DNA from: an uncultured Pirellulaceae bacterium
Lineage (GTDB): Bacteria; Planctomycetota; Planctomycetia; Pirellulales; Pirellulaceae
Assembly (NCBI GenBank): GCA_964558755.1
Contig: CAZLFF010000009.1
Location: 1-62,292, forward strand
Reading direction: 5' to 3'
DNA: 62,292 nucleotides
Below, one piece after another: positions 12,078 through 34,668 of the stretch. The position numbers and the translations under genes were made by a program. Below the pieces are notes generated by a model. The model was not told the origin of the DNA and did no database searches. It saw only the letters and a list, made by a program, of their open reading frames with translations. Each line of letters opens with the position of its first letter. Position 1 is the first letter of the stretch.

Positions 12078-12335
12078 CTCAGGCGCTCTGCCGTTACACC
12101 CGTTTAGTGGAATCTTAGTCTCCGCTAACGTTTTCGCGATGAACGCAAAACTGCCATGGCACGGTCAAAATCCCACCTCCGATCGTCTCAACCGTCGCGC
12201 TTAAAAACCCTCGATTGAACGTTGTGAAACTTAGTGGGAGCCAGTTGCTATATTGGACCGATCTTTTTTGAGCCAACGCGTTGAGCCCAGATGCGGCGCG
12301 GTTGGATTCCCCATCACTCTTTGCAAAGTAAGCGA

Positions 12336-13226
12336 ATGTCACGACTGGCCAAACGTGTGAATCAAGGGCAAGGGCCCAAGTTAGCGAGTTGTAAGGCCAG
12401 CCAGTTCTCGTTTAAGTCCTTCGCCGATTCGCCCATCCGCGACTGGTCGCTGGGCCGTAAGTCGGTGCTGTTTGCCGAGGTCTCGATGATCTCGTACCTG
12501 CCGATTGAGGAGTGCAATGTGGCGGTGGGACTGCTGGGGTTCACCGACGGTAAGTTCTTCAACTGTGGTTCCTCGCAGGCGTACTGGTTTTCTAACGAGC
12601 ACGATAGCGTGGTGGTTTGTCGCGGCACCGAGCCAAACAATTGGGAAGATATCTCGGTTGACGCTGACGCGATCACTGCGGTGGCGGAAACGGTTGGAAA
12701 GGTCCATCGTGGTTTTAAGCGCGAGGCCGATGAGGTCTGGCCGTACATTGAAACGGCGATCGAGCCCAACGACAAACCGCTTTGGTTTTGCGGCCATAGC
12801 CTCGGAGGAGCTCTGGCGACCATTTGTGCGGCTCGGTGTGAGTTGTCCAGCATCCGCAGCAAACCTGAACAAGTTTTTACTTACGGCAGCCCTCGCGTTG
12901 GCTGTCACAAATACGTTAACTATGTTCAGCTGGAGCACTACCGTTGGGTCAACAACAACGACATCGTGACTCGCGTCCCGCCTGTGTGGTTGGGCTACCG
13001 GCACTGCGGTAAAGAGATGTACCTAAACCGGCACGGCATCGTGCAATCGCTAAAGGGCTGGCGTCGAATGAGCGATCGATTGCAAGGTTTTTTTACGGGG
13101 TTAACCAAGTGGCGAATCGATCATTTGTCTGACCACTCCGCGGTTTGTTACAAAGACTACTTGTTCAATCATTATCGGAACGAAGTGCCTTGGAATACGG
13201 GCAAGAAGCCGGTGGTGGCTGAGTGA
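12336..13226 (+). CDS. Lipase class 3 family protein
   Basis: CRGT, VHRGF, GHSLGG nucleophile elbow, TYGSPRVG, DIVTRVP, DH; start uncertain. Confidence 0.88.
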   Translation: MSRLAKRVNQGQGPKLASCKASQFSFKSFADSPIRDWSLGRKSVLFAEVSMISYLPIEECNVAVGLLGFTDGKFFNCGSSQAYWFSNEHDSVVVCRGTEPNNWEDISVDADAITAVAETVGKVHRGFKREADEVWPYIETAIEPNDKPLWFCGHSLGGALATICAARCELSSIRSKPEQVFTYGSPRVGCHKYVNYVQLEHYRWVNNNDIVTRVPPVWLGYRHCGKEMYLNRHGIVQSLKGWRRMSDRLQGFFTGLTKWRIDHLSDHSAVCYKDYLFNHYRNEVPWNTGKKPVVAE

Positions 13227-13321
13227 GTCGTGGAGTGATCCCGGTCATTGGAATCCAAAACCTGAAATCCAAGAACTGCAAACGGAAACCTGCGTCCCCA
13301 ACACCGAACACTGCCCCGCCG

Positions 13322-13975
13322 ATGAACCTAATTCTGTTTCCAACCGCCTTGGAGCATGACATCTGCTGGCCAAAAGTGCAGCCTCATCTTGACGCCGAAC
13401 AAGTCGTTGCTGCGGTCTGCGGGTTTGGGTTGGTCGGCGCAGGAGTCGAAACGGCTCGGCTGATCGCAAAGCATCAACCGTCTCAAATCCTGCTGTTGGG
13501 GATCGCCGGCGGCTACCGTGCCGACGACGTCGAGACCGGTGTCTTTCAGTTCACGCATGTGGCTTGCGACGGCATCGGAGTCGGTGAAGGAGCCTCATTC
13601 CGATCAGCGTCAGAAATGGGATGGCAGCAGTGTCCAGATAACGGCAGCGATCCGGAAATTGGTGACCAGATTTCTTTGGCCGTGATCAGCCCAACTGAAA
13701 CGGCAGCCGAAAGCCGGCTTCTATCGGTCACTAGCGCTTCGGCCGATGCGAACCATGCGGCCCAGCGTCGACAGCGGCACCCAAGCGCCATCGCGGAAGA
13801 CATGGAAGGTTTTGCCGTCGCCATGGCGGCGACGCGAGCCAGGGTTCCTGTCGCAATCATTCGAGGCATCTCGAACCTCGCAGGGGATCGGAATCATGCT
13901 AATTGGAAAATCGAAAGAGCTTTGGAGCTTGCCGCTGAATTGGCAATCGAGCATTTGCAGCGAGTATCATCGTGA
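13322..13975 (+). CDS. mqnB: Futalosine hydrolase
   Basis: PNP/MTAN fold (GIAGG, EDMEGFAVA, RGISN, NWKI) directly upstream of mqnD. Confidence 0.85.
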   Translation: MNLILFPTALEHDICWPKVQPHLDAEQVVAAVCGFGLVGAGVETARLIAKHQPSQILLLGIAGGYRADDVETGVFQFTHVACDGIGVGEGASFRSASEMGWQQCPDNGSDPEIGDQISLAVISPTETAAESRLLSVTSASADANHAAQRRQRHPSAIAEDMEGFAVAMAATRARVPVAIIRGISNLAGDRNHANWKIERALELAAELAIEHLQRVSS

Positions 13976-14859
13976 GTGATTCCAACGATCAAATTCAGCT
14001 GGCGATTTCGACTTGCCCCAACGATACGTTTGCCTTTCATGGAATCATCAATCGCAAGATTGACTTGGAGGGCATCGACTTTCAGGTTGAGCTGTTGGAC
14101 ATTTCGCAGCTTAACGACGGTTTATTCTCGGGTAAGTTCGACGTCGCCAAAGCCAGCTTCCACGCCGCGTTGCAGCTGGCTGACCAAACGGTTGTGTTGC
14201 CATCAGGCAGCGCCCTTGGCTTTGGCGTCGGACCGCTGCTGTTATCGTCCGAGCCCGATACGAGCCCCGACGTCCTGCTGTCCCCATCATCGACAGTCAC
14301 CTTGTGTCCCGGCCCGCACACGACCGCGACCCTGTTGATGAAGATGTTCTACGGCGACGCGATTGAGAAACAGCGAACGCGACTAGAGCATCGTGTGTTT
14401 TCGGAGATCATGCCCGCCTTGCAGAACCAATCGGCCGATTTCGGCGTGTGCATCCACGAAGGCCGCTTCACGTGGCAAGAAGAAGGCTTGCATTTGGTCG
14501 AAGATCTCGGCATCCGTTGGGAGCGTGAAACCGATTGCCCTCTGCCGCTGGGCGGCATCCTCGCGCGTCGCTCTTTGGGCGACGACCTAACGGGACGAGT
14601 GCAGCGTGTGATTCGCCGGAGCATTGAATACGGCCTCGCCAACCGCCAGGAAACGCTTCCCACCATGCGGCAACATGCTCAAGAATTCAACGACGACGTG
14701 CTCATGCAACACGTCGATTTGTACGTCAACGATTGGACCGTTGATCTAGGAGGTATCGGCGGCAAAGCACTTAGTTGCCTCTCCAGCCTAGCCGGCGATC
14801 GAAGAGTGGGCTTAAGCGACTCGGTAGCACACCAACTACAGATTTGGTCAGTTGACTAA
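13972..14859 (+). CDS. mqnD: 1,4-dihydroxy-6-naphthoate synthase
   Basis: STCPNDTF, ALGFGVGPLL, PGPHTTA, IHEGRFT, PLPLGG, HVDLYVN; GTGA overlap with mqnB. Confidence 0.92.
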   Translation: MSDSNDQIQLAISTCPNDTFAFHGIINRKIDLEGIDFQVELLDISQLNDGLFSGKFDVAKASFHAALQLADQTVVLPSGSALGFGVGPLLLSSEPDTSPDVLLSPSSTVTLCPGPHTTATLLMKMFYGDAIEKQRTRLEHRVFSEIMPALQNQSADFGVCIHEGRFTWQEEGLHLVEDLGIRWERETDCPLPLGGILARRSLGDDLTGRVQRVIRRSIEYGLANRQETLPTMRQHAQEFNDDVLMQHVDLYVNDWTVDLGGIGGKALSCLSSLAGDRRVGLSDSVAHQLQIWSVD

Positions 14860-14950: not shown

Positions 14951-15634
14951 TTAAGGCTTTGAAGTGTCGCTGTCAGACGCATTCTCTTGAATGACATTGA
15001 TTCGCTTCTCCGACAATTCTGGTACCGCCACTTGCTGTTGATTGCCCGTTGGCCAAACGACTGTGATTTTGGCGATCGGGTCGGCTGTCTGAAACCCGAC
15101 GCCAAGAACGGCGCTGTTCTGAGCGACGTTTCCTTCCCCCGATTGGCGGTGGAGCATTAAGATTCTGCCAGAGCGATAATTGACAATTACCTTAGCGCCG
15201 ATCGCGTCACGGTTGGTTAGAAGGAGATTGGGCGAGTCGCCGGAATGGCCGCCCCGTAGTTTGATTCGGTACCGTCGGTTTTTCGAAATGTCCGCCAATT
15301 GATTGCGGAGGAGGGTAAACCTGGGACGATTGGTGCTCACGAGAGCGATATCGGTCCAGCCGTCATTGTCAAAATCGATTTTCGCGAACCCTCGACCGTC
15401 TCCCAGATGATCGGCGCCGCTGACAAGCGAGATGTCCAGGTAGTTCTGGCCGTCGTTGAGGAACATCCGATTGGGTTCGCTGCCGCTAAATGAGTTGCAT
15501 TCATAGAACGGGGGGCCCTTTTCTTTTTTCACAAACATCGCGTCGCGATACTTTTGATGCTTCCAAGCATCGGCGTGAATCATTTTGGAGCTTCGGGTTC
15601 GATCCGTACGCACGACCGTGCGCCACCAGCAACT
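14951..15634 (-). CDS. C-terminal FG-GAP + ASPIC/UnbV segment, in frame with the upstream segment (fused product 881 aa if TGA is read through)
   Basis: Open from the TGA onward: SCWWRTVV...SFSGSEPNRMFLN...DGRG..DFDNDGWTDI...NRDAIGAKV...WPTG; 17596-15613 = 1983, a multiple of 3. Confidence 0.8.
   Translation of the reverse strand, partial: SCWWRTVVRTDRTRSSKMIHADAWKHQKYRDAMFVKKEKGPPFYECNSFSGSEPNRMFLNDGQNYLDISLVSGADHLGDGRGFAKIDFDNDGWTDIALVSTNRPRFTLLRNQLADISKNRRYRIKLRGGHSGDSPNLLLTNRDAIGAKVIVNYRSGRILMLHRQSGEGNVAQNSAVLGVGFQTADPIAKITVVWPTGNQQQVAVPELSEKRINVIQENASDSDTSKP
15608..15623 (-). promoter_or_regulatory. Bacterial SECIS-like stem-loop
   Basis: UGA, 11-nt spacer, then GCGCAC-GGUC-GUGCGU; same spacer length and GGUC loop as the E. 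coli fdhF SECIS. Confidence 0.65.
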
Positions 15635-17596
15635 TCATATGTCGACTTTACTGTCGGATTCATCAACAGCCGTGAAGTAACCGCTAGGAACGTATAAATC
15701 CAAGAAACCATTGTTGTCGAAGTCGGCGAATTGACCGCCGTAGGACCATCCAACCCGGCCAACATCCTGTCGAGCAATTGTATCGCCGGGTGATTTAGTG
15801 CCGGCTACATTGCGTAGCTGACCGTTGCCGTTTTGATATAGAAAATTTCCACGCGTGGCGACCTCCATCCGAGTGTCGCCTTTGCCGAGAAATTTTAGAA
15901 TCCGTGTGCCGGCTTTCGAGTACATATTCGACACGTAGAGGTCTAGATCGCCATCGGAGTCGTAGTCGCCCCAGCTGGCTCCCATTGCAAACCCAGATTC
16001 TTGTCCTGGAAGCCACTTGGAAAGGCCATCGGAGAACGTGGGAACCGCGGCGCCGGCCGGAGTTTCATTGATCAGGAACCCGTCACCCGCGAAATCGTTG
16101 GCAACATACAGGTCATCGTCTCCGTCTTGGTCAGCATCTGCCCACGCCGACTGATAAGAGTGATGCCATTGCTCGGTGAGCGCAGTTCCCTTGATCATTT
16201 CCAGCCGACCCCCTCCCCGGTTCATTACCAGCAGATTGGGTGGTCCAGCGTTGTCGACAAATCCGTGACCTTTTTGGTGTTTGGAAACCAGTTTCTCGTA
16301 ATCCTCCAAATCTAGAAAACGGTTCTTCCAATCATTTGCTTGGGTTATGTTCTGCGGGACGTTCTGGCCAAAAGGTCCGTAAGTGCTCAGGTATAAATCT
16401 ACCAGACCATCACGATTCACGTCCGCGGCCGAGATCGCGGAAACCAAATATTGGCCATGTAGGTTGGAAAGATCCCAGGTCACGTTGGTGAACTTTCCGC
16501 CATCATTCCGCATGTAGGCTAGCGGCTCGAGCGAGCGACCGATAATTGCGTCTTTGTCCCCATCGTTATCAAGATCGACGAATGCTGAGCAGTTGACGAC
16601 CGCAGCAAACCTTAGTCCGACTTCATCGGTGACGTCTTCGAACGTACCGTCTCCTTTGTTTCGAAGCAGTTGCGTGGGGCACCACCGACCACTAATAAAT
16701 AGGTCGTCAAGCTGATCGTTGTCATAGTCCACGACGGAAACAGAAGGCAGCGTGTGCGGAGAAGCCGCGTCGATGTACGGCGAGTATGGACCCAAATCGG
16801 GCATCGCTCCGGTCAGCACCGTGTTCGTGATCAATTCTTCATGGCGAGAGCGTTGGGCGGCCTGAAGGGTTGCGGGGTTTGTTAGGCACCGCGATGTAAC
16901 GTCAGAGAACATGGGAATCGGGCTAGTTAGTACGTTTAGCTTTTGCGACTCCCAACCGATAAGTCGCCATTGCTCACCCTGTTGTTCCCAGGTTAGTTCT
17001 TGCTCACCCGTGAATCCTGCGGCCACATCTGCCGGAATGAACTTGCCCCACAGTTTTGTTTTCATCACAAATCTGGAACGGTCCGCGTCCACAAAGTCCG
17101 CCCACAGAATGCCAAACTTGAGAGACTCTAAGCGCGGAAAAGACTTCATCAAAAAATCAATTGGCTTCGCACCGCTATTCACGTCAAGCGTTTGTAGCGG
17201 CCAATCGAATGAAGCCGTTTCGAATTGTCGCTGCCCATTTGGGGCTGCATTCAGCTCACTCAATTCAGTGACGGTCAGCTCTCCCGCACCTACGCATCTC
17301 GACAACGCATAGAAACTCGGTGGCGTGGCTTGGTTCGGCGAGTCTTGAAACCAAGCTGCTAACTTCTTTAGGCGAAAAGTCAGATCGAGACCAAGGTCTT
17401 CGACCTGTACTAGGCGTTCGACCAAGCCGGCTTCCGGGTCAGTATTCTTCAACGCTGTCGGATCCTCTGGAGCCCGAACATCTGAATTTGAAGACGTCCT
17501 TGGATCAGTTGCAGTGGGCTCCGGTGATCCGCATCCGGTTGAAACAAGAAATAAAAGGACCAGTGCGGAAAGCGAACGAAGACGAAAATCCGTCAT
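15635..17596 (-). CDS. CRTAC1-family FG-GAP/VCBS repeat lipoprotein, N-terminal segment up to an in-frame TGA (probable Sec codon)
   Basis: Lipobox ...VSTG-C; repeats DYDNDQLDDL, DLDNDGDKD, DVNRDGLVDL, DADQDGDDDL, DYDSDGDLDL, DFDNNGFLDL; ends ...KVDI-TGA. Confidence 0.85.
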   Translation of the reverse strand: MTDFRLRSLSALVLLFLVSTGCGSPEPTATDPRTSSNSDVRAPEDPTALKNTDPEAGLVERLVQVEDLGLDLTFRLKKLAAWFQDSPNQATPPSFYALSRCVGAGELTVTELSELNAAPNGQRQFETASFDWPLQTLDVNSGAKPIDFLMKSFPRLESLKFGILWADFVDADRSRFVMKTKLWGKFIPADVAAGFTGEQELTWEQQGEQWRLIGWESQKLNVLTSPIPMFSDVTSRCLTNPATLQAAQRSRHEELITNTVLTGAMPDLGPYSPYIDAASPHTLPSVSVVDYDNDQLDDLFISGRWCPTQLLRNKGDGTFEDVTDEVGLRFAAVVNCSAFVDLDNDGDKDAIIGRSLEPLAYMRNDGGKFTNVTWDLSNLHGQYLVSAISAADVNRDGLVDLYLSTYGPFGQNVPQNITQANDWKNRFLDLEDYEKLVSKHQKGHGFVDNAGPPNLLVMNRGGGRLEMIKGTALTEQWHHSYQSAWADADQDGDDDLYVANDFAGDGFLINETPAGAAVPTFSDGLSKWLPGQESGFAMGASWGDYDSDGDLDLYVSNMYSKAGTRILKFLGKGDTRMEVATRGNFLYQNGNGQLRNVAGTKSPGDTIARQDVGRVGWSYGGQFADFDNNGFLDLYVPSGYFTAVDESDSKVDI

Positions 17597-17674
17597 GAGC
17601 CTAGCTAGTTCCTGGAAAAGCGGCGAGGGAAACTCAAAATGTTAACTTATCAACCGAATTGACCGCGTGGCATT

Positions 17675-17706
17675 AAAAAAAGTCGCGCCGAATTCGGAGC
17701 GACTTT
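17675..17706 (-). terminator. Intrinsic terminator after the PEP-CTERM gene
   Basis: Minus strand AAAGTCGCTCCG-AATT-CGGCGCGACTTTTTTT. Confidence 0.75.
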
Positions 17707-17733
17707 GCGGTCGGTTAAGAGTTGTCGACGGTT

Positions 17734-18609
17734 TTACGCCCGACGGCGTGCGACCAAGGCAAGCCCAAGCAATCCCAACACGCTCAGGCTTCCTGGTTCA
17801 GGAATTCCGGCGATAACCGGATTGATCTCCAAAAAGAAGCTGTCGATCCGAGCGTTTTGTGCTCCAGCTGATTGAAAGAAGCCGGCGGTTTCTGCTGCCG
17901 GCTTGCCAAACACCGGGGCGATGCCAGTCTCAGACAAAATCGGAGTTGCACTTCCGTTAATGAAATGATCGATGTCAAAAGTGCCGGATCCGGTCGAAGT
18001 CAGCACGATTTCATATTCGGACAACTCAATTGCCCCTGGAGTTGTATCAACTGCAATACCGGTTGCAGCTGAAGCGGGGCTATTGCCGAAGCCTCCGTTG
18101 TCAATGAAGACGTTGCCACCTTGATTGCGAACTTCACCGCCAATCGCCAAGCTGCTATTGCCGACGGGGTTGCTGGTGTCGCCATCGACCAAACCAATGG
18201 GGTTGCCACGGTTGTCCGTGTTCGTCACGAAATCAAAGTTTGTGACTCGCGCGATGATCGTTGATCCGGCGGCAAGCCCCAGAATGTTTGCCTCTTTCAA
18301 AAGGCTCGACGATGGCTGCGAATCGTTGTTGGGATCGTCATCTCCCAGCAAAGCGCGGCCAAAACCAGCATTAGCACCGAAGAAACCGGCACCGGCGGAA
18401 TCCTCGACATAGGTCGTTCCTTGCCCAAAGACATTCATGTCCGTGTTGTTGTAATTGATGCTGCCAGGGGCCGGGCCGCCGTCGGCGAAACCTTCTGCCG
18501 CTGTGAAGTCCAAATTGACGATCACGTCGGCATGAGAAATCTGACCTAGCGTCAAAAACAAAGCGATGGCCACTATGACCGACAAAGAAAATCTATTCAT
18601 TGGAGGCAT
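17734..18609 (-). CDS. PEP-CTERM sorting-domain surface protein
   Basis: Signal peptide ending SHA-D; C-terminal IPEPGSLSVLGLLGLALVARRRA. Confidence 0.9.
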   Translation of the reverse strand: MPPMNRFSLSVIVAIALFLTLGQISHADVIVNLDFTAAEGFADGGPAPGSINYNNTDMNVFGQGTTYVEDSAGAGFFGANAGFGRALLGDDDPNNDSQPSSSLLKEANILGLAAGSTIIARVTNFDFVTNTDNRGNPIGLVDGDTSNPVGNSSLAIGGEVRNQGGNVFIDNGGFGNSPASAATGIAVDTTPGAIELSEYEIVLTSTGSGTFDIDHFINGSATPILSETGIAPVFGKPAAETAGFFQSAGAQNARIDSFFLEINPVIAGIPEPGSLSVLGLLGLALVARRRA

Positions 18610-21936: not shown

Positions 21937-23310
21937 TCAGTCGTCCAAGCGGTCGGCGAGCGTTTGCAGCAACGCAGACGCTTCCGCTCGAGTCAGTCGA
22001 GTCGGGTCGTAGTTGAGGCACAGATTTAGCTGCCGCCGATACTGGAAAACGCAAATCGCGGCTGCCGTTCCCGGGCGAATGGGGGCTGCGACATCCATCT
22101 CGACAAGAGTCGCACTGCCGATCTGAATGGCTCCGTCCGACGTGCCCGAGCGTTTCTTCAGCCGTAATCGCTGAGTGATTTGTCCGAGGTTGGTAAGCAC
22201 ACAACTCGATCGGCAAGTGTCCGTCGCGAACCACCGCCGCAGTCCACCCAGCCGCCGGAACAGACTGAGCGATTGCCAGAAGCTCAGCCCCAGACGCCAG
22301 CGCCGCACCGTTTCGATGTCGCGATGCACCTTTTGCAGCAGCCGCGCCGCGCTGTCGGAGCCCGGTTCGGTGCTGACGTCGGCTGGGCGTTCATCAAGGC
22401 TAATCATCGTACAATGATTGCAAGCGGGCATGCGACGATGCCGAGCCGTGCGTTCGTTGATCGGAACGGTCACGCGAAAATGACTGCCCACTGGCGCGAT
22501 TTGATTCTCGGCTTGCCATTGCTTCAGTGTCGGGTAAAGCTCGGCCACGATTGCGTCATTGGCGGTCACGCCCACTTCCTTCGCGCGCGCTGCCAAACGC
22601 TGCGTAACACTTTGGTTTAGCCGATGCACCACCATCGACGATCCAGCTTCGGGCGCCGGCGTGACTCGATTCGCGGGAGCCAGCGGGATCGGACGATGGC
22701 GAAAAAAGTACCAGAACCCTAACGAGCTAAGCCAGCCTAAGGGCATTAATCGCAGCCGCTCGGTCAGTGACAGCCCGGATGTGCAACGCGTCGCGAGCAT
22801 AGGCAAGTCCAACCGATAGCCCAATGAGCTCGCAGAGGAATCCGTCGTCGTGCCGGCCACTAGGCCGTCGTAGGCTCGCATCCAGTTGCCCATTACTTGC
22901 AACGCGCCGAGCCCATCGAAGGCAGCGTGATGAAAACGCAACGTCATCTGCGTGCCGGTTGGCTGCACCTGCAAGGTTAACTCAAACGGCGGTTCGTTGG
23001 GCAAATCAAACGGTTTGAACCGATCCACCGTCCCGTCGCGTGCTTCACAAACGTTGACCTGCGGTTGACACGAGCGATCTTCGATCCAACGAAATGCTTG
23101 ATCACTTCCTCCAACCGTTTCCAACCGGCTGCGCAGCATCGGCTGTCGAGCGACCACCATGTCGAGTGCCTGTTGGGCCCGGGTGGTGTCTAAGGAATGG
23201 TCAAACGTCAGTTGGAACGAGAACGCCGCCGGGTAATGGGGCGGACGATCATCGACCACAAACAGCTCTTCAAAGCCTTTGAGGGGTAATGGGAAGACGG
23301 ATTCAGGCAT
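21937..23310 (-). CDS. Stand-alone condensation-domain / CoA-dependent acyltransferase superfamily protein
   Basis: HHxxxDG (FHHAAFDGLG), P.LR, VPIN.R, LTNLG; divergent from the PPTase. Confidence 0.75.
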   Translation of the reverse strand: MPESVFPLPLKGFEELFVVDDRPPHYPAAFSFQLTFDHSLDTTRAQQALDMVVARQPMLRSRLETVGGSDQAFRWIEDRSCQPQVNVCEARDGTVDRFKPFDLPNEPPFELTLQVQPTGTQMTLRFHHAAFDGLGALQVMGNWMRAYDGLVAGTTTDSSASSLGYRLDLPMLATRCTSGLSLTERLRLMPLGWLSSLGFWYFFRHRPIPLAPANRVTPAPEAGSSMVVHRLNQSVTQRLAARAKEVGVTANDAIVAELYPTLKQWQAENQIAPVGSHFRVTVPINERTARHRRMPACNHCTMISLDERPADVSTEPGSDSAARLLQKVHRDIETVRRWRLGLSFWQSLSLFRRLGGLRRWFATDTCRSSCVLTNLGQITQRLRLKKRSGTSDGAIQIGSATLVEMDVAAPIRPGTAAAICVFQYRRQLNLCLNYDPTRLTRAEASALLQTLADRLDD

Positions 23311-23613
23311 GACGGATCGGGCGACATCGCTTTGGAATCGCTACTCGTTTGTTCGTTCGAAGGCCGCGATTGTAGGGGCTGGGGCCACCAGCCGGGAGAG
23401 CTGCGAATTCGGATTCCGCACCGACGCCTGATCCGAGTCGTGTTGAGTTCTGGCAACATGATTTTGGAGTGGTAGCCCGCATAACCCAAAAAATGCTCAC
23501 GGTCAATCAAGTCCATGCTAGGACGGCCTGAATCGCACGCGGATTCGGACTACGGCGCAGTTTGTAACCTAAGAATTAGTGACCCTTGCTTGCCTTTCCA
23601 CTTGGAAACACTC

Positions 23614-24318
23614 GTGAACCTAGCAAACTTAGCGCCGCCCTCAGCCAAATCCCGTGTTGAGTCGTTGAAGCACCGACCGTGCGCTCGGCCTGCGCGGTGG
23701 ATGTCGCATGTGCTCGCCAGTACGCCCGCGACCCGGTTTTCGGTTGGTTCCAACCGTGTTCCACCCGGCGCGTCGCAAGCCAAGGGGCGTTCGAAACGAC
23801 AAGCCGAGTTCGCATCAGGGCGCCGTGCGGCGGCCGATTTGCTTAACTCGTTTGGCGAAATTCATCCCGTTGGCGTGAACGAAGATCGGTCACCCGCGTG
23901 GCCCGCCGGCTTTGTTGGTTCCATCTCGCACAGCGATCACTGGACCACAGTCGTGGTGGCTCAGGATTCCGCGTTGCGATCGATCGGTGTCGATACCGAG
24001 CCAATCATTTCTCGTGCGAGCAGTGAACAGATTCGGGAAGAAGTCGCCACACAGGCTGAGCTGCGGTTGCTCGCGTGGTTGGGTTTGTCCCCCGAGGCAA
24101 CTCTGACGCTGATTTTCTCAGCCAAAGAGTCGTTTTACAAATGTCGCTATCCGCTTGATCGAACCTTTTTGGAATTCTCCGACGTGCGTGTCGTCGCGGC
24201 GACGGCCAATCGATTGAGCCTAGCGTTGGCGACAGACGAGGCGACTGAGCACCTGGATATCCACTACTACGTCGATCAGCAAGATGTGTTCACGTTGACA
24301 TGGAAAGAGGCGATTTAA
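23614..24318 (+). CDS. 4'-phosphopantetheinyl transferase (EntD/Npt-like)
   Basis: KRQAEFASGR, PAWPAGFVGSISHS, IGVDTE, FSAKESFYK; start uncertain (23515, 23614 or 23701). Confidence 0.9.
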   Translation: MNLANLAPPSAKSRVESLKHRPCARPARWMSHVLASTPATRFSVGSNRVPPGASQAKGRSKRQAEFASGRRAAADLLNSFGEIHPVGVNEDRSPAWPAGFVGSISHSDHWTTVVVAQDSALRSIGVDTEPIISRASSEQIREEVATQAELRLLAWLGLSPEATLTLIFSAKESFYKCRYPLDRTFLEFSDVRVVAATANRLSLALATDEATEHLDIHYYVDQQDVFTLTWKEAI

Positions 24319-27300
24319 TGAACGACGTTGAGCATATTTATGCACGCTTGAACGATGAAGCGAAAACTGACTACCCGCAAATGTCGCTGCCTGCGCTTAT
24401 TCAGCAGCAATGTGACCGTACGCCCGACGCAATCGCCGCAATGGGTGGTGATGATTCCCAGACCTACGCGGAACTTTCTCGCAAGAGCGATCAGGTTGCC
24501 GCGTTCTTGAGCCAACAAGGTATCGGCGCGGGCGACCTGGTGGGACTCTGTTGCAACCGCGACGTCGACACACCTGCTCTGTTGGTCGGGATCATGAAGT
24601 CTGGCGCGGGTTACGTGCCTTTAGATCCCGACTATCCGGCCGATCGGTTGAAGTTCATGGTGCAGGATGCGGGCTTGAAGCATGTGCTTCACCACGCAGA
24701 GCAAACGTCGCTGGTTCAACAGTTCGATGTGCCGACCACCGCGATCGAATCGCTTGATGACACAAATGCCGAGGCCCCGCAGGTTGAAATCGACATTGAT
24801 CGTGACGTCGCCTACGTGATTTATACCTCGGGCTCGACCGGCCAGCCCAAGGGCGTGCTGGTGCCTCATCGCGGCGTGGTGAACATGCTGTCGAGCATGA
24901 TCCAGTGGCCCGGATTTACCTCTCGGGATCGGATCCTCGCAACCACAACACTTTCGTTCGACATTAGCGTCGCAGAAATGTTCCTGCCGCTGATCGTCGG
25001 CGGAAGCGTGGCGGTCGTTGATCGGCAAACCGCCAAAGACACTGTGGCTTTGGTCGCGGCTATGCAGAAGTTTGATGTGACCTTCATGCAAGCGACGCCC
25101 GCCATGTGGCGGATGATCGTCGAAACGGACTTTGCCGGCCGCGATGGCATGAAGTTCGTCACCGCCGGCGAGCCTCTGCCGCGTGATTTGATTCAGCCGC
25201 TGCTTGACCGCTGCGATGAGCTTTGGAACCTGTACGGACCGACGGAAACGACCGTGTACTCGTCGGGAACTCGGGTTCAAAACGACATCGATCCAATTTT
25301 GATTGGTGTGCCGGTTGCGAACAACCAAGTCTTTGTCGTCGATGAAGACAACAAGCTATGCCCAGCGGGCGTTGCCGGTGAGCTGCTGATTGCGGGCGAT
25401 GGAATGACGCTCGGCTATTTGAATCGGCCGGAGCTGAATGCGGAGAAATTCACCGATTGGAATGGAGTTCGCGTCTACCGCACCGGAGATTTGGCCAAGC
25501 TGACCTCCGATGGCCAGATCGATCACCTCGGTCGCATCGACCATCAGATTAAATTCAACGGCCATCGCATCGAGCTGGGCGAGATCGATGCCGCCATGGC
25601 GATGCAGCCGGGAGTCCGTCAAGCCGCCACCGTGCTGCGAGAAGATCGCCCCGGTGACATTCGGCTGGTCGGATACCTTTTGGCCAAAGCGGACCAGACG
25701 CCCAACGTGTCGCAGATCCGAAACGAGATCGCCAGCCAGTTGCCCGACTACATGGTCCCGGGCACGATTGTAGTCGTTGAAGAGTTTCCGCACACGCCCA
25801 GCGGCAAGCTGGACCGTAAGTCGTTTCCGCCACCTTCGACGGCTCGGCCTGATATCGGAACCGAGTTTGTTGCTCCGAAATCAGATACAGAGAAGAAGTT
25901 AGCCGCCATCTGGTCGGACGTTCTGCAGTTGGATGAAGTTGGCGTCCAAGACAACTTTTTCGAACTCGGAGGAAACTCAATCCGCGCCGTCAAAGTGGTT
26001 GCGTCGGCCAAAAGCCAATTACAGATCAAGGTGACCGGCGCGGAGTTTTTTGATAACCCGACGATCGCTGCGTTGTTGTCGCTGGCAGAGAAAAAGAAAT
26101 CACTCACCGACAAGTTCCGCGTGGGCTCGTGCAAAGGCGAATCTCAAAACGAATCGCAAACGCAGGGCAACGACCGCGCGACTGCTGGCCAATACGCCGT
26201 CGTCGGCATGGCCGCGCGGATGCCCGGCGCGGGGGATGTCGAGTCGTTTTGGGACAACCTGATCGAACAGCGTGAATCGATCAAGGTCTTCAGCCCCGAA
26301 GAACTCGACGAAACGCTTGATCCACGCGACACTGACGACCCGAACTACGTCCCGGCGCGTGGAATAATCGAAGACGCGACCGAGTTCGATGCTCGGTTCT
26401 TTCGCACGCCACCACGCAACGCCGAGCTGACTTGTCCCCAGCAACGCGTGATGTTGGAGCTTGCTTGGACGGCTTTGGAAGACGCGGGCATCATTCCGAG
26501 CAACTCCCAGAGCACGATCGGAATCTGGGCCGGCACATACTCGACCAGCTACTACATCAAGAATTTGCTCACCAATCCAGAGCTTGTCCGGCAAACAGGC
26601 GAGTTCCAATTGGGGGCCATGAATGAGAAAGACTACATCGCCACCCGAGTCGCCCACGCGCTCAATTTGACGGGGCCCGCGATCAACGTTAACACCGCGT
26701 GCTCGACTTCGCTGGTCGCACTGATCGAAGCCTGCCAGTCGTTGAACGCTGGACACTGCGACGTTGCGTTGGCGGGTGGAGCGTCGATCACGTTCCCGCA
26801 AAACCAAGGTCACTTGCACCAGACCGGCAGCATTTTTACTCCCGACGGACATTGCCGCCCTTTCGACGCGGCCGGGGCGGGGACACTGTTCAGCGACGGT
26901 GCGGGTGTTGTGGTAGTGAAGCGTTTGGCCGATGCGATCGCCGACCAAGATCGCATCTATGCCGTCGTCAAGGGCTTCGGCGTCAACAACGACGGCGGAG
27001 AAAAAGCCAGCTTCAGCGCGCCGAGTATTTCAGGGCAGGCCGGCGCGATCGCGATGGCTCAAGCGATGGCCGGCGTGAGCCCAGAAGATATTGGCTACAT
27101 CGAAGCACACGGTACCGCGACACCGATCGGAGACCCCATCGAGGTTGCAGCACTGCAAACGGTGTTCGAATCGCAAACCGACCGAAAACAGTTCTGTGCC
27201 ATCGGCAGCGTGAAGTCGAACATTGGTCACACCGTCGCGGCGGCCGGAATCGCGGGCTTCATCAAGGCCGCCTTGTCGCTGCATCACGAGCAAATTCCCG

Positions 27301-30300
27301 CAACCTTGCACTTCAAAAGTCCGAACCCACAGATTGATTTCGCCAACAGCCCGTTCTACGTCAACGATAGACTCACGCCGTGGAAGCGCGGTGACCAACG
27401 ACGCTTGGCGGGCGTTAGCTCCTTCGGTGTCGGCGGCACGAATGCACACGTGTTGCTCGAAGAAGCTCCGGCAATCGAGCCCGCTGCAGCAACCGATCGA
27501 ATCGGGAATCTTCCGGTTGCGGTTTTGCCAGTTTCTGCAAAAACACAACCGGCCCTCGACGCCAACGTGGCCGAATTGGCATCGGCGCTTCAGCAAGATC
27601 CCAATGCTGACTTGCACCAAATTGCCAGCACGTTGCAGCTTGGCCGCGATGAGTTCGCTTACCGCGCGGCAATTGTTGCCGACTCGTTGGAGGACGCAGC
27701 CGCAACGTTGGCTGATCGCAAACCACCTCGCTTCATGAAGCGAAAATCTTCAGCCGCCGCACGCGATGTGGTGTTCATGTTCCCCGGGCAAGGTTCTCAG
27801 TACGTGCGGATGGGGCAGAATCTTTACGAGCACTCCAGCGTGTTCCGTGAGCACTTGGATCGCTGCGCCGAAATTCTGATTCCGCTGTTGGGGCGCGATC
27901 TGCGAGACGTCTTGTTCCCGGCCTCTGGTGATGAAGAAGCGTCTAAAGAAATCCTGAAGAACACCCAATTCACTCAGCCGGCCCTGTTTGCATTGGGCTA
28001 CTCGTTGGCAAAAGTTTGGCAAGCGTGGCACGTGACGCCAACCGCATTGATGGGACACTCGATTGGCGAATTTGCGGCTGCCGCCGTGGCGGGCGTGTTC
28101 CGCCTAGAGGACGGTTTGCGAATGATCGCCGAGCGTGGTCGCGCGATGCAGGCGTTGCCGGGCGGGAGCATGATGAGCGTTCGTATGCCGGGCGCGGAAG
28201 TCGAACCACTGCTGTGGGGCGACATGGCCATCGGTTCATTTAATGGACCCGAACTATGTGTCGTGGCTGGGCCGGACGACCAAGTGAAACAGCTACAAGA
28301 GAAATTAGAAGCGCAAGACATTGTGTGTCGTCACCTGCACACGTCCCACGCCTTCCATTCGCCCATGATGAATGATATCGTCGATCCGTTCGCCGATTTC
28401 GTTGGCCAGTTCGAATTGTCGCCGCCGCAGATCCCGATTCTGTCTACCGTGACGGGCGATTGGATGACGGATGAGCAAGCGACCGACGCCCGCTATTGGG
28501 CTGACCATTTGCGATGCCCCGTTCGCTTTAGCGAAGCCGTGACGCAGATGTGGGACGACGATCCAACGCGAATTCTGATCGAACTTGGACCACGCCGAAC
28601 TTTGGCCACCCTGTCACGTCAGCACGCGACGGACCCGAAAACTCAACTTGCTTTACCGACGCTGTCCGACAATGCGGACGGCAATACGGAATGGAGCAGC
28701 ATGCTATCCGCCGTTGCTCAACTATGGCTGGCCGGCGCGGTGATTGATTGGCGGCGTCTGTCTGCTGATGCCGATCCACGTCCGCAGCAGCCGCACGTTA
28801 CGCTGCCGACTTATGCGTTCCAGCGAAAAAAATACTTTGTTGAACCGGGCCGCCCAACCAAGGTCGCCGCTGTTCAAGCCTCAAATTCACCCGCTATGCA
28901 ATCGGCGATCGCCGAACCTCAGCCGAAACCCTCCGCCGTATTGGAAACTGCTATGAGCCGAACTCCCAACTTGATTTCCGCGATCCAAGACGTCTTTGAG
29001 AACACCTCAGGCTTTGACTTGACGGAGTTCGAAGGTGATACCACCTTCTTTGAGATGGGCTTAGATTCGCTGGTGCTTACTCAAACCGCGACGGCGTTGA
29101 AGAAAGAATTGAACTACGAGGTCACCTTCCGCCAGCTGCTAGAAGAAACCCCAACGGTCGATTCATTGGCCGCGTGGTTGGACGAAGTGTTGCCCGCAGG
29201 TCAATTGGCCGCCACCGCACCCGCTCCTGCCGCCGTGCCCGAATCAACCCCGGCACCAGCCGCTGTGCCCGAGTCCAAGACCTGCGAGGTAGCCGCCGTT
29301 GCGACTCCCGTGACAGCGCCAGCCGTTGCTCCGGTCAGCCAGCCGGCCCCCGCACCGATCGCCGCGCCAGTGCAGGTTGTTTCGCAGATGCAGCCAACGG
29401 TCGGTGGTGACGCGATGCAGACGATTGTGCAAAACCAGCTACAGCTCATGCAGGCTCAACTGCAGTTGCTCGGTGGAAGCAGCCCGGCTCCGGCCAGTTT
29501 GCCCGTCGCGGCGGTCGCCGTGACCGAGTGTGCGACCACTCCAGCGGCTCCCGTTGTTGATGAAGTGTCAGTCGCTGCTCCGGTCGCCGCGTTGCAGGCT
29601 TCGGCCGTCACCGAACCCGAGGTTTCGTCAAAAGAAGAGCCTGCGAAAGCGAAACGGTTTTCCACAGTCAAAACAACCGACGGCGACCTGACGGCCGCCC
29701 AACAAGTGGCTCTCGATCGGATCATTCGTGACAGCAACGCGATGTGGCCTAAGAGCAAAGATTACGCTCAGCAGCATCGAAAGTACATGGCCGACCCGCG
29801 TACGGTTTCTGGGTTTCGTCCGAACATGAAAGAGATGACTCATCCGATCGTCGTTGAGAAATCAAAAGGCGTTCAGTTGTGGGACATCGACGGAAACGAG
29901 TACGTTGATTTCACTTGCGGATTCGGCTCGAACTTGTTGGGGCACACGCACGAAATCACGGTTGCCGCGATTTCGGAGCAAGTGCAAACCGATTACGCGA
30001 TCGGGCCTCAGTCACCGTTGGCTGGCGAAGTCGCTCGGCTGTTCTGTGAAATCACCGGCAACGAACGGATGGCGTTTTCCAATACCGGTTCTGAAGCCGT
30101 GCTCGGTTGCACTCGATTGGCTCGTAACGCCACTGGACGCGATTTGATCGTCATGTTTAACGGCGATTATCACGGAATTCTGGACGAAGTGATCGCTCGC
30201 GGCAGCAAAAAACGTCAAAGCTTCCCCGCTGCGACCGGCATTCCAAAGTCTCATGTTAACAACACGCTGATCTTGGATTATGGAACGCAGGAATCGTTGG

Positions 30301-31187
30301 ACATCATCCGCGAGCGGATGGATGAGATTGCGGCGGTCTTAGTAGAGCCAGTCCAAAGCCGGACCCCCGAATTGCAACCGAAGGCGTTCTTGCAAGAACT
30401 GCGTCGCATGACCGAGGACCAGCCAACGTGCCTGATTTTTGACGAAGTCATTTCTGGTTTGCGAATCGGATTGGGCGGTGCTCAAGAGTATTTCGGTATC
30501 AAGGCTGACCTCGCGTCCTACGGAAAAATCGTCGGCGGCGGTATGCCGATCGGTATTGTGGCCGGTAAGGCCGAGTACATGGACGGCTTTGATGGAGGTT
30601 TCTGGCAGTACGGTGACGACAGTCGCCCTGAGGCCGGGATGACCTACTTTGCGGGGACGTTCGTGCGTCATCCGCTGACGTTGGCCGCATCCAAAGCGAT
30701 TTTGGAACACTTGCAGGCAGGCGGACAGCCAATGTACGACCGCCTGAACAAGGTCAGTCAGTACTTGGCCGACGAGCTTAATCGTGTCTTTGAGGAACTC
30801 GAGGCACCGATGTTCCTAGCGAACTTTGGATCTCTGTTCAAAATTCAGTTCCACCAAGAACTGGTGTACAGCGAGATCTTTTTTGCGGGACTGCGGCGAC
30901 GCGGAATGCACATTTGGGATCACCGCCCTTGCCTGCTGACGTTGGCTCATGATGAATCGCATGTCGATCAACTGGTCGACGCGATGCGAGAGACCATTAT
31001 CGAATGCCAGAGACACGGGTTCATGCCGGGCGAAGGTTATCGCAAGGCCGCGACCGCGTTCGACCCAAACAATCCACCGCAAACCGGTGCCAAAATTGGC
31101 AAGGACGAGCGTGGAAGACCCGGTTGGTTTGTCGCCGACGATCTGAACCCGGGTCAGTACACCCAAGTCGGAATTGCCCAAAACTAG
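24318..31187 (+). CDS. Hybrid NRPS/PKS: A-T-KS-AT-ACP-class III aminotransferase
   Basis: A: YTSGSTGQPKG, YGPTE, YRTGD; T: GGNS; KS: TACSTS, HGT, NIGH; AT: GHSIG, HAFH; ACP: GLDSL; aminotransferase: FDEV, GKIVGGG; TAATG overlap with the PPTase. Confidence 0.95.
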   Translation: MNDVEHIYARLNDEAKTDYPQMSLPALIQQQCDRTPDAIAAMGGDDSQTYAELSRKSDQVAAFLSQQGIGAGDLVGLCCNRDVDTPALLVGIMKSGAGYVPLDPDYPADRLKFMVQDAGLKHVLHHAEQTSLVQQFDVPTTAIESLDDTNAEAPQVEIDIDRDVAYVIYTSGSTGQPKGVLVPHRGVVNMLSSMIQWPGFTSRDRILATTTLSFDISVAEMFLPLIVGGSVAVVDRQTAKDTVALVAAMQKFDVTFMQATPAMWRMIVETDFAGRDGMKFVTAGEPLPRDLIQPLLDRCDELWNLYGPTETTVYSSGTRVQNDIDPILIGVPVANNQVFVVDEDNKLCPAGVAGELLIAGDGMTLGYLNRPELNAEKFTDWNGVRVYRTGDLAKLTSDGQIDHLGRIDHQIKFNGHRIELGEIDAAMAMQPGVRQAATVLREDRPGDIRLVGYLLAKADQTPNVSQIRNEIASQLPDYMVPGTIVVVEEFPHTPSGKLDRKSFPPPSTARPDIGTEFVAPKSDTEKKLAAIWSDVLQLDEVGVQDNFFELGGNSIRAVKVVASAKSQLQIKVTGAEFFDNPTIAALLSLAEKKKSLTDKFRVGSCKGESQNESQTQGNDRATAGQYAVVGMAARMPGAGDVESFWDNLIEQRESIKVFSPEELDETLDPRDTDDPNYVPARGIIEDATEFDARFFRTPPRNAELTCPQQRVMLELAWTALEDAGIIPSNSQSTIGIWAGTYSTSYYIKNLLTNPELVRQTGEFQLGAMNEKDYIATRVAHALNLTGPAINVNTACSTSLVALIEACQSLNAGHCDVALAGGASITFPQNQGHLHQTGSIFTPDGHCRPFDAAGAGTLFSDGAGVVVVKRLADAIADQDRIYAVVKGFGVNNDGGEKASFSAPSISGQAGAIAMAQAMAGVSPEDIGYIEAHGTATPIGDPIEVAALQTVFESQTDRKQFCAIGSVKSNIGHTVAAAGIAGFIKAALSLHHEQIPATLHFKSPNPQIDFANSPFYVNDRLTPWKRGDQRRLAGVSSFGVGGTNAHVLLEEAPAIEPAAATDRIGNLPVAVLPVSAKTQPALDANVAELASALQQDPNADLHQIASTLQLGRDEFAYRAAIVADSLEDAAATLADRKPPRFMKRKSSAAARDVVFMFPGQGSQYVRMGQNLYEHSSVFREHLDRCAEILIPLLGRDLRDVLFPASGDEEASKEILKNTQFTQPALFALGYSLAKVWQAWHVTPTALMGHSIGEFAAAAVAGVFRLEDGLRMIAERGRAMQALPGGSMMSVRMPGAEVEPLLWGDMAIGSFNGPELCVVAGPDDQVKQLQEKLEAQDIVCRHLHTSHAFHSPMMNDIVDPFADFVGQFELSPPQIPILSTVTGDWMTDEQATDARYWADHLRCPVRFSEAVTQMWDDDPTRILIELGPRRTLATLSRQHATDPKTQLALPTLSDNADGNTEWSSMLSAVAQLWLAGAVIDWRRLSADADPRPQQPHVTLPTYAFQRKKYFVEPGRPTKVAAVQASNSPAMQSAIAEPQPKPSAVLETAMSRTPNLISAIQDVFENTSGFDLTEFEGDTTFFEMGLDSLVLTQTATALKKELNYEVTFRQLLEETPTVDSLAAWLDEVLPAGQLAATAPAPAAVPESTPAPAAVPESKTCEVAAVATPVTAPAVAPVSQPAPAPIAAPVQVVSQMQPTVGGDAMQTIVQNQLQLMQAQLQLLGGSSPAPASLPVAAVAVTECATTPAAPVVDEVSVAAPVAALQASAVTEPEVSSKEEPAKAKRFSTVKTTDGDLTAAQQVALDRIIRDSNAMWPKSKDYAQQHRKYMADPRTVSGFRPNMKEMTHPIVVEKSKGVQLWDIDGNEYVDFTCGFGSNLLGHTHEITVAAISEQVQTDYAIGPQSPLAGEVARLFCEITGNERMAFSNTGSEAVLGCTRLARNATGRDLIVMFNGDYHGILDEVIARGSKKRQSFPAATGIPKSHVNNTLILDYGTQESLDIIRERMDEIAAVLVEPVQSRTPELQPKAFLQELRRMTEDQPTCLIFDEVISGLRIGLGGAQEYFGIKADLASYGKIVGGGMPIGIVAGKAEYMDGFDGGFWQYGDDSRPEAGMTYFAGTFVRHPLTLAASKAILEHLQAGGQPMYDRLNKVSQYLADELNRVFEELEAPMFLANFGSLFKIQFHQELVYSEIFFAGLRRRGMHIWDHRPCLLTLAHDESHVDQLVDAMRETIIECQRHGFMPGEGYRKAATAFDPNNPPQTGAKIGKDERGRPGWFVADDLNPGQYTQVGIAQN

Positions 31188-31239
31188 TCTGTACACAATC
31201 CCCTCCCATTCTGCGCTGACCTCATCCTCTGGAGCCATC

Positions 31240-34200
31240 GTGAACTCATCGAACACGCTCGCAAACCTATCCGAAATTCCACTCGCCGTTGGTGCGACCA
31301 GCGACGCTGTGACCCGTTACGCAGCCGCCGAAGCGCAGCTCGAAGTCTGGCTTTCGAGTCAGCAAAGTATCGAAGCTAGCTGTGCGTATAACGAGATTAG
31401 CTCGTTGATGATTTCAGGTTCACTTAACACCGATCGTCTAAAGAAAGCAATCAATCAGGTCGTCAATCGGCACGAAATGCTCAGGTCAACGCTCAGTGCT
31501 GATGGACGCGAGGTGATTGTCCGTCCGCAGGGCGAATTCGGATTCGAGGAAAAGGATTTTTCCGGTGACTTGCCCGACGGTGTCGAGGAAGCACTGTCCT
31601 CAGTTGTGCACCAGCAGGCGACGACGCCGTTCGATTTGGTGAACGGACCGCTTTTGCGCTGCGTCCTGCAGAAGGTCTCCGCAACCCAGCACAAACTAAC
31701 GTTTGCAGCCCATCACTTGGTGCTGGACGGCTGGTCGTTGGCAGTTTTCTGTCAGGATCTCGGTCACTTTTACGACACCGCCGGTGGCGTGAATCGCGAA
31801 CAACTACCCGCGGTCAATTCTTACCGCGACTACGCAGCTAAGATTGACCAGTACCTTAGCTCAGACTCGGGCCAAGCCGACGAAGCGTTTTGGGTTGAGC
31901 AGTTTTCATCAAATGGGCAGACTGATATTCCGGTCTTAGATCTGCCAACCGAGAACCCTCGTCCTGCCTTGCGAACGTACGAGGGCCGACGTTTCGATCA
32001 TTTGCTCAGCACCGATCTAGTTGAAAAGGTGCGAAAGATGGGCGCGAAAAGTGGATGCAGTCTGTTCAACACCATGCTCGCAGCCTTCAATGCGTATCTA
32101 GCACGGATTAGCGGGACGGATGATTTTTGTGTCGGCATTCCAAGCGCTGGGCAAGCTGCGATGGACCAGCCGGAACTGATCGGCCACTGTGTCAACACGA
32201 TGCCACTGCGAACACGAATCGACACGAGCCAGGCCTTTGTCGCCTATTTGAAATCCTGCCGCAGTCAGTTGCTGGACGCGTTCGAGCACCAGCGCTACAG
32301 CTATGGAACGTTGTTGCGAAAACTCGCACCGCCCCGCGACCCGTCTCGACCGCCGATGCTGAGTGTTTCGTTCAATGTTGACCCGATGATTGAGCGTGAC
32401 AAGTTGGGTTTCGCTGGCTTGGACGTTGAAGTGGTCATCGAACCGCGTAGCTTTGAGAACTTTGAGTGGTTCGTCAATGGCGTGATCTTGGCGGACAAGT
32501 CGATCGAGATGCAGGTGCAGTACAACAGCAATCTGTACAGCAAACAATCGATCCGCTTCTACCTAGAAGGCTTCGAGGCTTTCTTGGCAGAACTCGCTAC
32601 CGACCCAACCCAGAAAATTGTCGACACGCATTTGATGAGCATCGCTCAGCGTCAGCAGGCGATCGTGGATTGGAATCGAACGGAGCTCGAATACCCAACC
32701 GAAAGCACTTTGCACGCCGAGTTTTCGCGTCAATGCTTGGCGACGCCCGATAAAACGGCTGTCGTTTTCGGAGACGCCTCGCTAACCTACGCGCAGGTCG
32801 AATCGCGTAGTAACCAAATCGCCCGGCATTTGCAGGCCTCAGGCATTGGTGCGGGCGACCTGATCGGGATCTGTGTTGAGCGAAGCGAGCGAATGCTGGT
32901 TTACCTTTACGGGATCTTAAAATCCGGCGCTGGCTACGTGCCGCTCGACCCGGCCTATCCCAGCGATCGACTGCAATACATGTGCGATCACTCGGGTCTC
33001 AAACTGATCGTTACCGAAAGCGAATTAGCCAATCGCGTGGCCCAGTTTAACAAGCCGCAGATTGCCATCGACGACGCGTCCGACGCGATTGACCAGCTGG
33101 ATTCAAGCTCGGTCGAATCGCAGGTTGACCCGGCCAGCATTTGCTACGTGATCTACACATCGGGCTCGACGGGCAAGCCGAAGGGCGTCCAAGTTCCGCA
33201 CGGTCCGGTCGTCAACTTCTTATACGCGATGCAGGAAACACCCGGGTTTAGCGAAACCGATTCCGTGCTGGCGGTGACGACGCTGTCGTTCGATATCGCG
33301 GTGCTGGAGCTGTACCTGCCCACGATCTCTGGCGGTCAAGTCGTGATCTTAGACAGCTTGACTGCCGCCGACGGAGCGAAACTGGCCCAGCAATTGGTCA
33401 CGCACGATATTTCTCTGTTGCAGGCGACGCCCGCGACATGGCGGCTGATGCTGCAAGCTGGCTGGGAAGGAAAAAAAGACCTGAAAGTGCTCTGCGGCGG
33501 TGAGCCCATGCCGCAGGATTTGGTCGCGCCGCTGCTTGAGCGGTGTGGTGAACTTTGGAACATGTACGGACCGACGGAAACGACCGTTTGGTCGGCCGCC
33601 TACCAAATTACCAGCCCGACGGCTCCGATTTTGATCGGACGTCCGGTTGGCAACACGCAAATTTACTTGCTGGATGACCATGGCCGCGAGGTTCCCGTCG
33701 GTTGCGAAGGCGAAGTCTACATCGGTGGCGCGGGCGTTACGTTGGGCTATCGGCACCAGGCCGATCAAACCGCCGAACGTTTCGTTTCAAACCGGTACCG
33801 CAATCCGTTTGTCGATTACGTCAGCGATCGGTTGTACAAAACCGGTGACTTGGCAAAGAACCCGTTCGCCGGCACCCTGAAATTTTTGCGGCGAAATGAT
33901 AAGCAGGTAAAGGTCCGCGGTTTTCGAATTGAGTTGGGCGAGATCGAGCAAAATCTGAAACGACACGACTCAATTGAGCAAACGGTCGTCATCGTTCGCG
34001 AGGACACGGCCGGTGACGCTCGTTTGGTGGCCTACATGGTCCCCAAAAACGGCCAAACGATCGCCGACAATGCGTTGCGTGATCACCTGAAGCAATCGCT
34101 GCCTTACTACATGGTGCCGCAGCATTTTGTGACGCTTGAATCGATGCCACAGACGAACAACGGCAAGATTGATTACCGAGCCCTCCCCGCGCCGGTCGTG

Positions 34201-34626: not shown

Positions 34627-34638
34627 CCACTTAGAAAT

Positions 34639-34662
34639 CCTGAACCCTGAACCCTAAAACCT
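34639..34662. repeat. Heptamer tandem repeat
   Basis: CCTGAAC CCTGAAC CCTAAAA CCT just before ATG 34669. Confidence 0.6.
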
Positions 34663-34668
34663 TCTCTC

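Follow-up and report, generated by a model that had tools for sequence, protein, structure and literature searches.

On the minus strand of a 62,292-nucleotide stretch of DNA from an uncultured Pirellulaceae bacterium (GenBank assembly GCA_964558755.1, contig CAZLFF010000009.1, positions 1 to 62,292; the whole stretch is called the window below), a gene at 14951-17596 is interrupted by an in-frame TGA, behind which lies a short hairpin. The presence of both within one 881-residue frame is confirmed, and the sequences make it very likely that the UGA is decoded as selenocysteine (Sec), with SelB binding the hairpin and delivering Sec-tRNA. We favor this decoding because of the UGA and hairpin themselves, the complete Sec machinery of the host, the conservation of the arrangement among homologs, and the selection visible on the codons that form the hairpin.

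The TGA at 15635-15637 is the only internal stop of the frame, at a junction that reads KVDI*SCWWRTVV. A first-pass annotation, made from the sequence alone, had proposed that two minus-strand open reading frames (ORFs; 15635-17596 and 14951-15613) share one frame split only by this codon, that reading through it yields an 881-residue protein with an FG-GAP propeller and an ASPIC/UnbV domain, and that the GTG start of the second ORF falls inside the hairpin; translation and Pfam searches bear this out and place the GTG in the 3' arm. The prediction that standard annotation would split the gene also proved right, as its C-terminal half is called separately as a 210-residue protein (P0241). The hairpin itself (15608-15623, minus strand; loop 15614-15617; GCGCAC-GGTC-GTGCGT) lies where it had been placed, beginning 11 nt past the TGA, and is conserved across homologs. 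A UGA within the ORF and, shortly after it, a small hairpin whose loop carries GGUC make up an arrangement also seen in bacterial SelB-decoded selenoproteins such as E. coli fdhF and the formate dehydrogenase of the host. The Sec insertion sequence (SECIS) of E. coli fdhF has an 11-nt spacer and a bulged U; the present hairpin lacks the bulge, and its loop begins 17 nt past the UGA as opposed to 18 in the host formate dehydrogenase. E. coli SelB binds the fdhF SECIS, according to PMC7590224. With its 4-nt GGUC loop, 6 bp, 17-nt distance and -9.6 kcal/mol, our hairpin falls within the consensus constraints for a bacterial SECIS, which in PMC13188914 are a loop of 3-9 nt with G in its first two positions, a stem of 4-16 bp, a distance from UGA to loop of 16-37 nt and an energy of <= -7.5. 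An Rfam scan returned no SECIS match.

The host genome, which is 92.85% complete and among named genomes stands nearest to Pirellulaceae and Mariniblastus records, is equipped to insert Sec. The search for selA, selB, selC and selD that had been suggested as a check found all of them: selA, selB, selD and tRNA-Sec score above curated cut-offs, with the tRNA-Sec structure given by ARAGORN. In the host region G000:C51:3656-19396, the selD gene sits within a 753-codon frame that has a long N-terminal extension, and a TGA-bearing paralog of our gene lies ~11 kb from it, after a PEP-CTERM gene, a CRTAC1-like gene without TGA and a further ORF. The host formate dehydrogenase (G000:C94:7687) provides an internal positive control; it is interrupted by TGA at the known U-H-x-P site, and a 6-bp hairpin with a GGTCT loop follows 18 nt after the TGA. 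There are five paralogous matches to our gene in the host, and the closest three (63, 37 and 33% identity) share both the TGA and the hairpin at this column, with a compensatory pair in the hairpin of one, while the two more distant CRTAC1-like genes have neither the motif nor a TGA. A simple hairpin scan of the host gave 44 matches among 3424 TGA junctions, five of them interpretable: the four family genes and the formate dehydrogenase. A codon-model scan for further host selenoproteins was discarded, having missed its own controls (the formate dehydrogenase and the CRTAC1-like family).

Beyond the host, the TGA recurs in related loci. Matches occur in 27 of 41 genomes (the host and 40 relatives), up to 15 in a single genome (G033); a single TGA is present in 108 of the 111 matches, the remaining three not extending across the site. 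At the junction the codon is TGA in 127/127 cases read, never TAA or TAG. These junctions, 117 of them distinct, come from the fetched loci L008-L109, leaving aside alignments below 33% identity (within L038-L109) and one misaligned repeat (L020). Together with the three host paralogs, they answer the first-pass question of whether TGA is conserved at this column. Beyond the TGA, a median of 227 codons follows before the next stop (range 109-608, 147 cases). Family genes are often found two or three in tandem, and each copy then has a TGA and a hairpin of its own (L040-L073, G006:C101, G010:C40). In protein databases, 87 of the best 120 matches end precisely at this column and 30 run through it, the remainder being two unrelated repeats and one unalignable match. 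For the best 150 representatives at 50% identity, pattern matching puts the end of 112 at the column and inspection by eye that of another 17, while 15 continue across it (one spanning row is misparsed, and ends are judged from the protein rather than from a stop codon). Full-length homologs with a sense codon thus run across the column. The 30 close ones have Glu (26), Ser (2), Gly (1) or Cys (1) there; in the wider family, where 101 of 120 long matches could be aligned, the residues are Ser 17, Asn 17, Asp 16, Glu 13, Cys 11, Gly 8, Ala 7, His 5, Gln 3, Tyr 2, Arg 1 and Leu 1. In the phylum to which G041 belongs the family is patchy; among 150 genomes drawn from that phylum, no genome other than G041 had a match.

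Is the RNA selected for something other than the protein that it encodes? Across the 117 distinct TGA junctions, Thr+6 is ACG in 46/46 cases (genome share of this codon 0.40) and Val+7 is GTC in 89/89 (0.38), and the mean folding energy of the junctions is -8.6, compared to -5.2 +/- 0.17 in synonymous redraws with host codon usage. A metagenome search with a Glu form gave 51 aligned junctions from 56 rows (32 TGA, 19 Glu). In this set the GGTC loop is present in 20/30 distinct TGA forms vs 0/17 Glu forms, and Thr is ACG in 18/21 vs 4/17. The hairpin is therefore kept beyond what the protein requires, a point that the first-pass annotation had marked for checking, with synonymous codons fixed in the TGA forms and relaxed in the Glu clade. 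Covariation of the pairs is modest (83% paired, 6 two-sided cells, 1/500 shuffles, in a set of 66 hand-picked rows of 104). A subgroup with the junction U-S-C-L-W-R-E-A-V-R (L054, L055, L059, L064-L068, L075, L076, L081) differs in that the hairpin is displaced and its loop is of the GCAG/GCGG type instead of GGUC. The Glu clade (L110-L128) also alters two otherwise invariant residues, A562 to P and S704 to N; both may lie near the Sec site, a hint from the alignment.

The TGA form also tracks the Sec machinery. The selA gene is present in 21 of the 25 relatives that have a TGA match (in one a contig-end fragment below cut-off); of the others, G006 and G030 have selB and tRNA-Sec and G004 has tRNA-Sec, so that 24 of the 25 possess at least one Sec gene. 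Conversely, five of the six relatives that are at least 90% complete and have no selA above cut-off show no family match, the exception being G006. In an even draw of 120 genomes from the phylum, 14 match a wider-family query, 12 of them with TGA, and all 14 have selA, which is found in 83 of the 120; no match occurs in the 37 genomes without selA. The naive chance of this association is ~0.01, a figure that overstates the case as kin are not independent, and the query missed the host itself. Verrucomicrobial carriers have selA in 5/5 cases. A cultured carrier with a complete genome, Oceaniferula spumae (L100), likewise has selA.

Several observations weigh against Sec decoding or against a chemical need for Sec. 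Taken singly, the hairpin is at chance level (z of +0.01 to +0.82 in four windows, and -1.1 for the 24-nt hairpin element), so the case for it rests on comparison among homologs. A 6-bp stem arises from the protein sequence by itself in 18% of cases, although the stem together with a GGTC loop does so in only 2.7%, and in some TGA forms (e.g. L047, L070 and L074) the hairpin is weak or different. The Glu forms are one clade and represent a single event, their loop change doubles as a Val-to-Met change, and 16 of 17 retain 5-6 of the 6 stem pairs, the stem being partly forced by the protein. In the covariation test, a control slid by +2 scores as high. One TGA-bearing relative (G012, 75% complete) has no clear Sec gene, just a borderline tRNA score. 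Lastly, Cys is rare at the column (1/30 close homologs, 11/101 in the wider family, 1/15 spanning representatives), unlike the situation in nearly all known selenoproteins, and the expected alignment of the column with Cys is for the most part not seen. The occurrence of Ser, Asn, Asp, Glu or Gly at this position in intact homologs shows that the protein can be kept without a chalcogen there.

If the UGA were not read as Sec, what else might it be? One alternative is that the TGA is a true stop and that a second polypeptide starts by translational coupling from the GTG at codon +8, the two halves assembling into one propeller. This GTG is present in 115/147 junctions, and the halves are stored as separate proteins in databases. 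The residues in between, however, behave as protein: Trp+4 is invariant and Arg+5 conserved, both ahead of the GTG, and Ser+1 is encoded by AGY in 122/147 junctions and by TCN in 21/147. Because this serine is kept across both codon boxes ahead of any start codon, its position is translated. Moreover, in 13/147 junctions the next 20 codons contain no start, TAA and TAG never take the place of the TGA, the TGA form follows selA, and the C-terminal half appears to have no export signal of its own. We regard such a split gene as very improbable. A nonsense mutation, an error of assembly, or a different genetic code in which the codon is read as Trp seems more far-fetched still. No same-strain contig among those of four DNA runs from one study bridges the codon, so the TGA of this particular copy rests on the assembly, but four host genes and more than 100 homologs share this codon at this column, and their frame continues well past it. 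All three stops are in use in the host, with TGA ending 324 of 1135 long ORFs; the sole tRNA found there with a TCA anticodon is tRNA-Sec; and Trp never occurs at the column among the spanning homologs aligned (30, 101 and 15).

Read through as Sec, the gene would encode a multidomain exported protein (coding sequence 14951-17596, minus strand, as are all its features). A putative signal peptide (17531-17596) ending in a visible STGC lipobox at Cys22 suggests a lipoprotein, and the lipobox Cys is kept in 93% of 97 short TGA forms. Next comes a predicted NTF2-like domain (residues ~50-228; 16913-17449; model predicted local distance difference test, pLDDT, 81.5), for which the top Foldseek matches are NTF2-like folds (best E 2.7e-4, template modeling score, TM, ~0.5), while Pfam gave no match and an Atlas search returned hypothetical clusters only. 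The FG-GAP beta-propeller (residues ~286-769; 15290-16741; PF13517/PF01839) extends across the TGA, with FG-GAP repeats on both sides. Its DxDxDG motifs are near-invariant in the family, and calcium binding may be suggested on the basis of these motifs. The ASPIC/UnbV domain (residues 798-857; 15026-15205; PF07593, E 2.6e-9) completes the chain. A model of the read-through protein (pLDDT 88.5, predicted TM 0.90, from 62 aligned sequences of which 28 cover the C-terminal half) shows a single confident propeller that requires both halves around the UGA. In this model, the predicted Sec654 would lie at the N-terminus of a helix (632-640 in model numbering), where a segment is inserted between the strands of a single FG-GAP repeat, a position read from the model's secondary structure rather than from coordinates. 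The best structural match is murine CRTAC1 (PDB 9etn; profile E 9.9e-13; fold E 3.3e-23, TM 0.67 on target), which likewise has an FG-GAP propeller followed by ASPIC/UnbV. At 16% identity, the present protein differs from it by adding a lipoprotein anchor, the NTF2-like domain and the Sec-bearing helical insertion.

What would a Sec residue do on such a scaffold? The first-pass annotation had pointed to a U-x-C site formed with Cys656 (15629-15631) that could serve in redox chemistry or metal binding. The site stands for the short subfamily, in which Cys occupies +2 in 80/88 TGA forms and in 0/13 sense forms; it does not extend to the long forms (0/163) or to two of the host's three TGA paralogs, where the +2 residue is Asn or Gln. 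Long members terminate instead in a TlpA/ResA-like domain, as does the host C39 paralog, with a Redoxin/AhpC-TSA match in 12/13 long forms scanned. The CxxC of this domain is intact in 40/41 long TGA forms compared to 28/113 non-Cys sense forms (counts by alignment column, with redundant rows included and a lenient CxxC call). After thinning, a partner thiol is present in 73/81 Sec forms vs 20/89 non-Cys sense forms. We infer that this either-or pattern is what a redox site in need of a resolving thiol would give. On the other side, CxxC is kept in only 3/9 long Cys forms, 8/88 short TGA forms have neither partner, and independent contrasts, which lean the same way as the raw counts, are not significant (median p 0.25, 1 and 0.375). 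With U against CxxC, 4.0 of 9 pairs go the expected way and 0.5 the opposite (median p 0.25), and the contrast of short form against Cys+2 has only 3 pairs; with so few pairs, these tree-independent contrasts are underpowered. On a tree with a weak backbone, U-x-C without the fused domain arises in three places, and U/non-U changes number at least 13.

On balance, a redox (selenol/thiol) mechanism at U-S-C seems the better supposition, though well short of assured. The UGA and the GGUC-loop hairpin would direct SelB to insert Sec, giving one membrane-anchored, exported CRTAC1-like propeller of 881 residues. The selenolate of Sec654 would then attack an oxidized periplasmic or surface substrate (a peroxide, a sulfoxide or a protein disulfide), Cys656 would resolve the intermediate by forming a selenenylsulfide, and re-reduction of the site would fall to a separate thioredoxin-like protein of the periplasm; in long members, the fused TlpA-like CxxC domain would take the role of Cys656. 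The window also encodes a DsbD-type protein with a thioredoxin-like domain (53755-55842, plus strand), a possible source of periplasmic reducing power. For the family at large, we tentatively suggest, with somewhat less than even confidence, that it is a large, multi-copy set of exported selenoenzymes built on a CRTAC1-type propeller, in which Sec is ancestral, has mostly been replaced by non-reactive residues and only rarely by Cys where it was lost, and is recycled by interchangeable means, a local U-x-C or a fused TlpA-like thioredoxin.

Sec could also be inserted for other ends. The U-x-C might bind a soft metal or trap an electrophile, for sensing, scavenging or covalent capture at the cell surface, with no oxidoreductase turnover. 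U-x-C at a helix start is a geometry that would be compatible with a metal ligand, fold searches found no oxidoreductase fold for the Sec-bearing part, and the NTF2-like pocket domain together with a set of invariant residues (M538, N557, M558, S560, R565, W617, S704, E707, R735) suggests a ligand site. Yet the long forms have no second local ligand and do carry the TlpA-like CxxC domain, and the family alignment contains no conserved His and no further Cys cluster; we consider this role unlikely. Sec might instead be chemically dispensable, the codon acting as a switch by which selenium decides whether an adhesin or scaffold protein is made truncated or in full length. At least 12 residues are tolerated at the column in intact homologs, the many U/non-U changes on the tree fit such indifference, and CRTAC1-type propellers are not known as enzymes. 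We think a switch of this kind decidedly unlikely, given that the partner thiol is kept in Sec forms far more often than in non-Cys sense forms and that the truncated product, as modeled, would be short of part of the propeller.

Elsewhere in the window, a PEP-CTERM protein (17734-18609, minus strand) is encoded directly upstream. Between it and our gene lies a strong terminator-like hairpin with a U run (17675-17706, minus strand; fold of 17660-17725, z -4.8), which is absent from the list of a consensus terminator scan; matches in a promoter scan were at chance level. A PEP-CTERM gene stands upstream on the same strand in all four host family copies, but an obligate link was rejected, as this is so in only 10 of 91 TGA loci tested. 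Convergent and downstream of our gene (12291-14859, plus strand) are genes for a class 3 lipase, a futalosine hydrolase and a menaquinone biosynthesis protein, with no link to it. Further away are a small nonribosomal peptide synthetase/polyketide synthase cluster (21937-36359), comprising a condensation-domain protein, a phosphopantetheinyl transferase, a 2295-residue AMP-binding/ketosynthase/acyltransferase/aminotransferase hybrid, a condensation-adenylation-thiolation module and two hydrolases, and a 2405-residue UvrA-like protein with its UvrA domains doubled (39210-46427, plus strand).

The decoding mechanism proposed here is already known, and the family has been glimpsed before. The S9 Table of a 2016 study (PMC4807772) contains four ASPIC/FG-GAP gene pairs from planctomycetes P1 and P2 as selenoprotein candidates, aligned to Gly and in three cases with a SECIS, without comment and without alignment, family size or function; in what is accessible of its main text and S2 Text, ASPIC and FG-GAP are not mentioned. 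Gly also occupies the column in acidobacterial matches here (P0224), and these candidates very likely belong to the same family as our gene, the columns being compared by the table's description only. None of the 119 prokaryotic selenoprotein families in a 2026 catalogue is of the FG-GAP/ASPIC type, NCBIfam 20.0 lacks a corresponding model, and BSepDB (PMC13326102), in its text and one supplement of 4.0 million characters, perhaps incomplete, gave no term match. A full-text literature search pairing selenoprotein or selenocysteine with CRTAC1, FG-GAP, ASPIC or VCBS returned unrelated papers only, the candidates of Haft and Tolstoy 2025 and Deng 2026 being outside its coverage. The UxC selenoproteins of the 2026 catalogue (thioredoxin-like Sec.2 and the SO_0444 transporter) share the U-x-C spacing but have unrelated folds, and in the present family U-x-C is confined to the short subfamily, with a fused CxxC domain in the long one. 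Compared to classic selenoproteins, the scaffold is a propeller of calcium-binding-type repeats rather than the fold of a molybdoenzyme or of thioredoxin, and few homologs have Cys. Our gene very probably encodes a selenoprotein; its family, otherwise uncatalogued, is large and multi-copy, stands on an unexpected scaffold and is unusual in how seldom it pairs Sec with Cys.

Selenoprotein discovery has relied largely on Cys/Sec pairs, and the presence of Ser, Asn, Asp or Glu rather than Cys in non-Sec homologs may be why such screens missed these genes; if our reading is right, the family would expose a blind spot of those screens. Many split annotations would be corrected (~129 of the 150 best cluster representatives at 50% identity end at the column), and the function of bacterial CRTAC1-like proteins would become testable at a single residue, a first chemical handle on them. 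Selenium chemistry would also extend outside the cytoplasm in planctomycetes and verrucomicrobia, and on the tentative family-wide view given above, these proteins would rank with the most numerous selenoproteins in marine planctomycetes.

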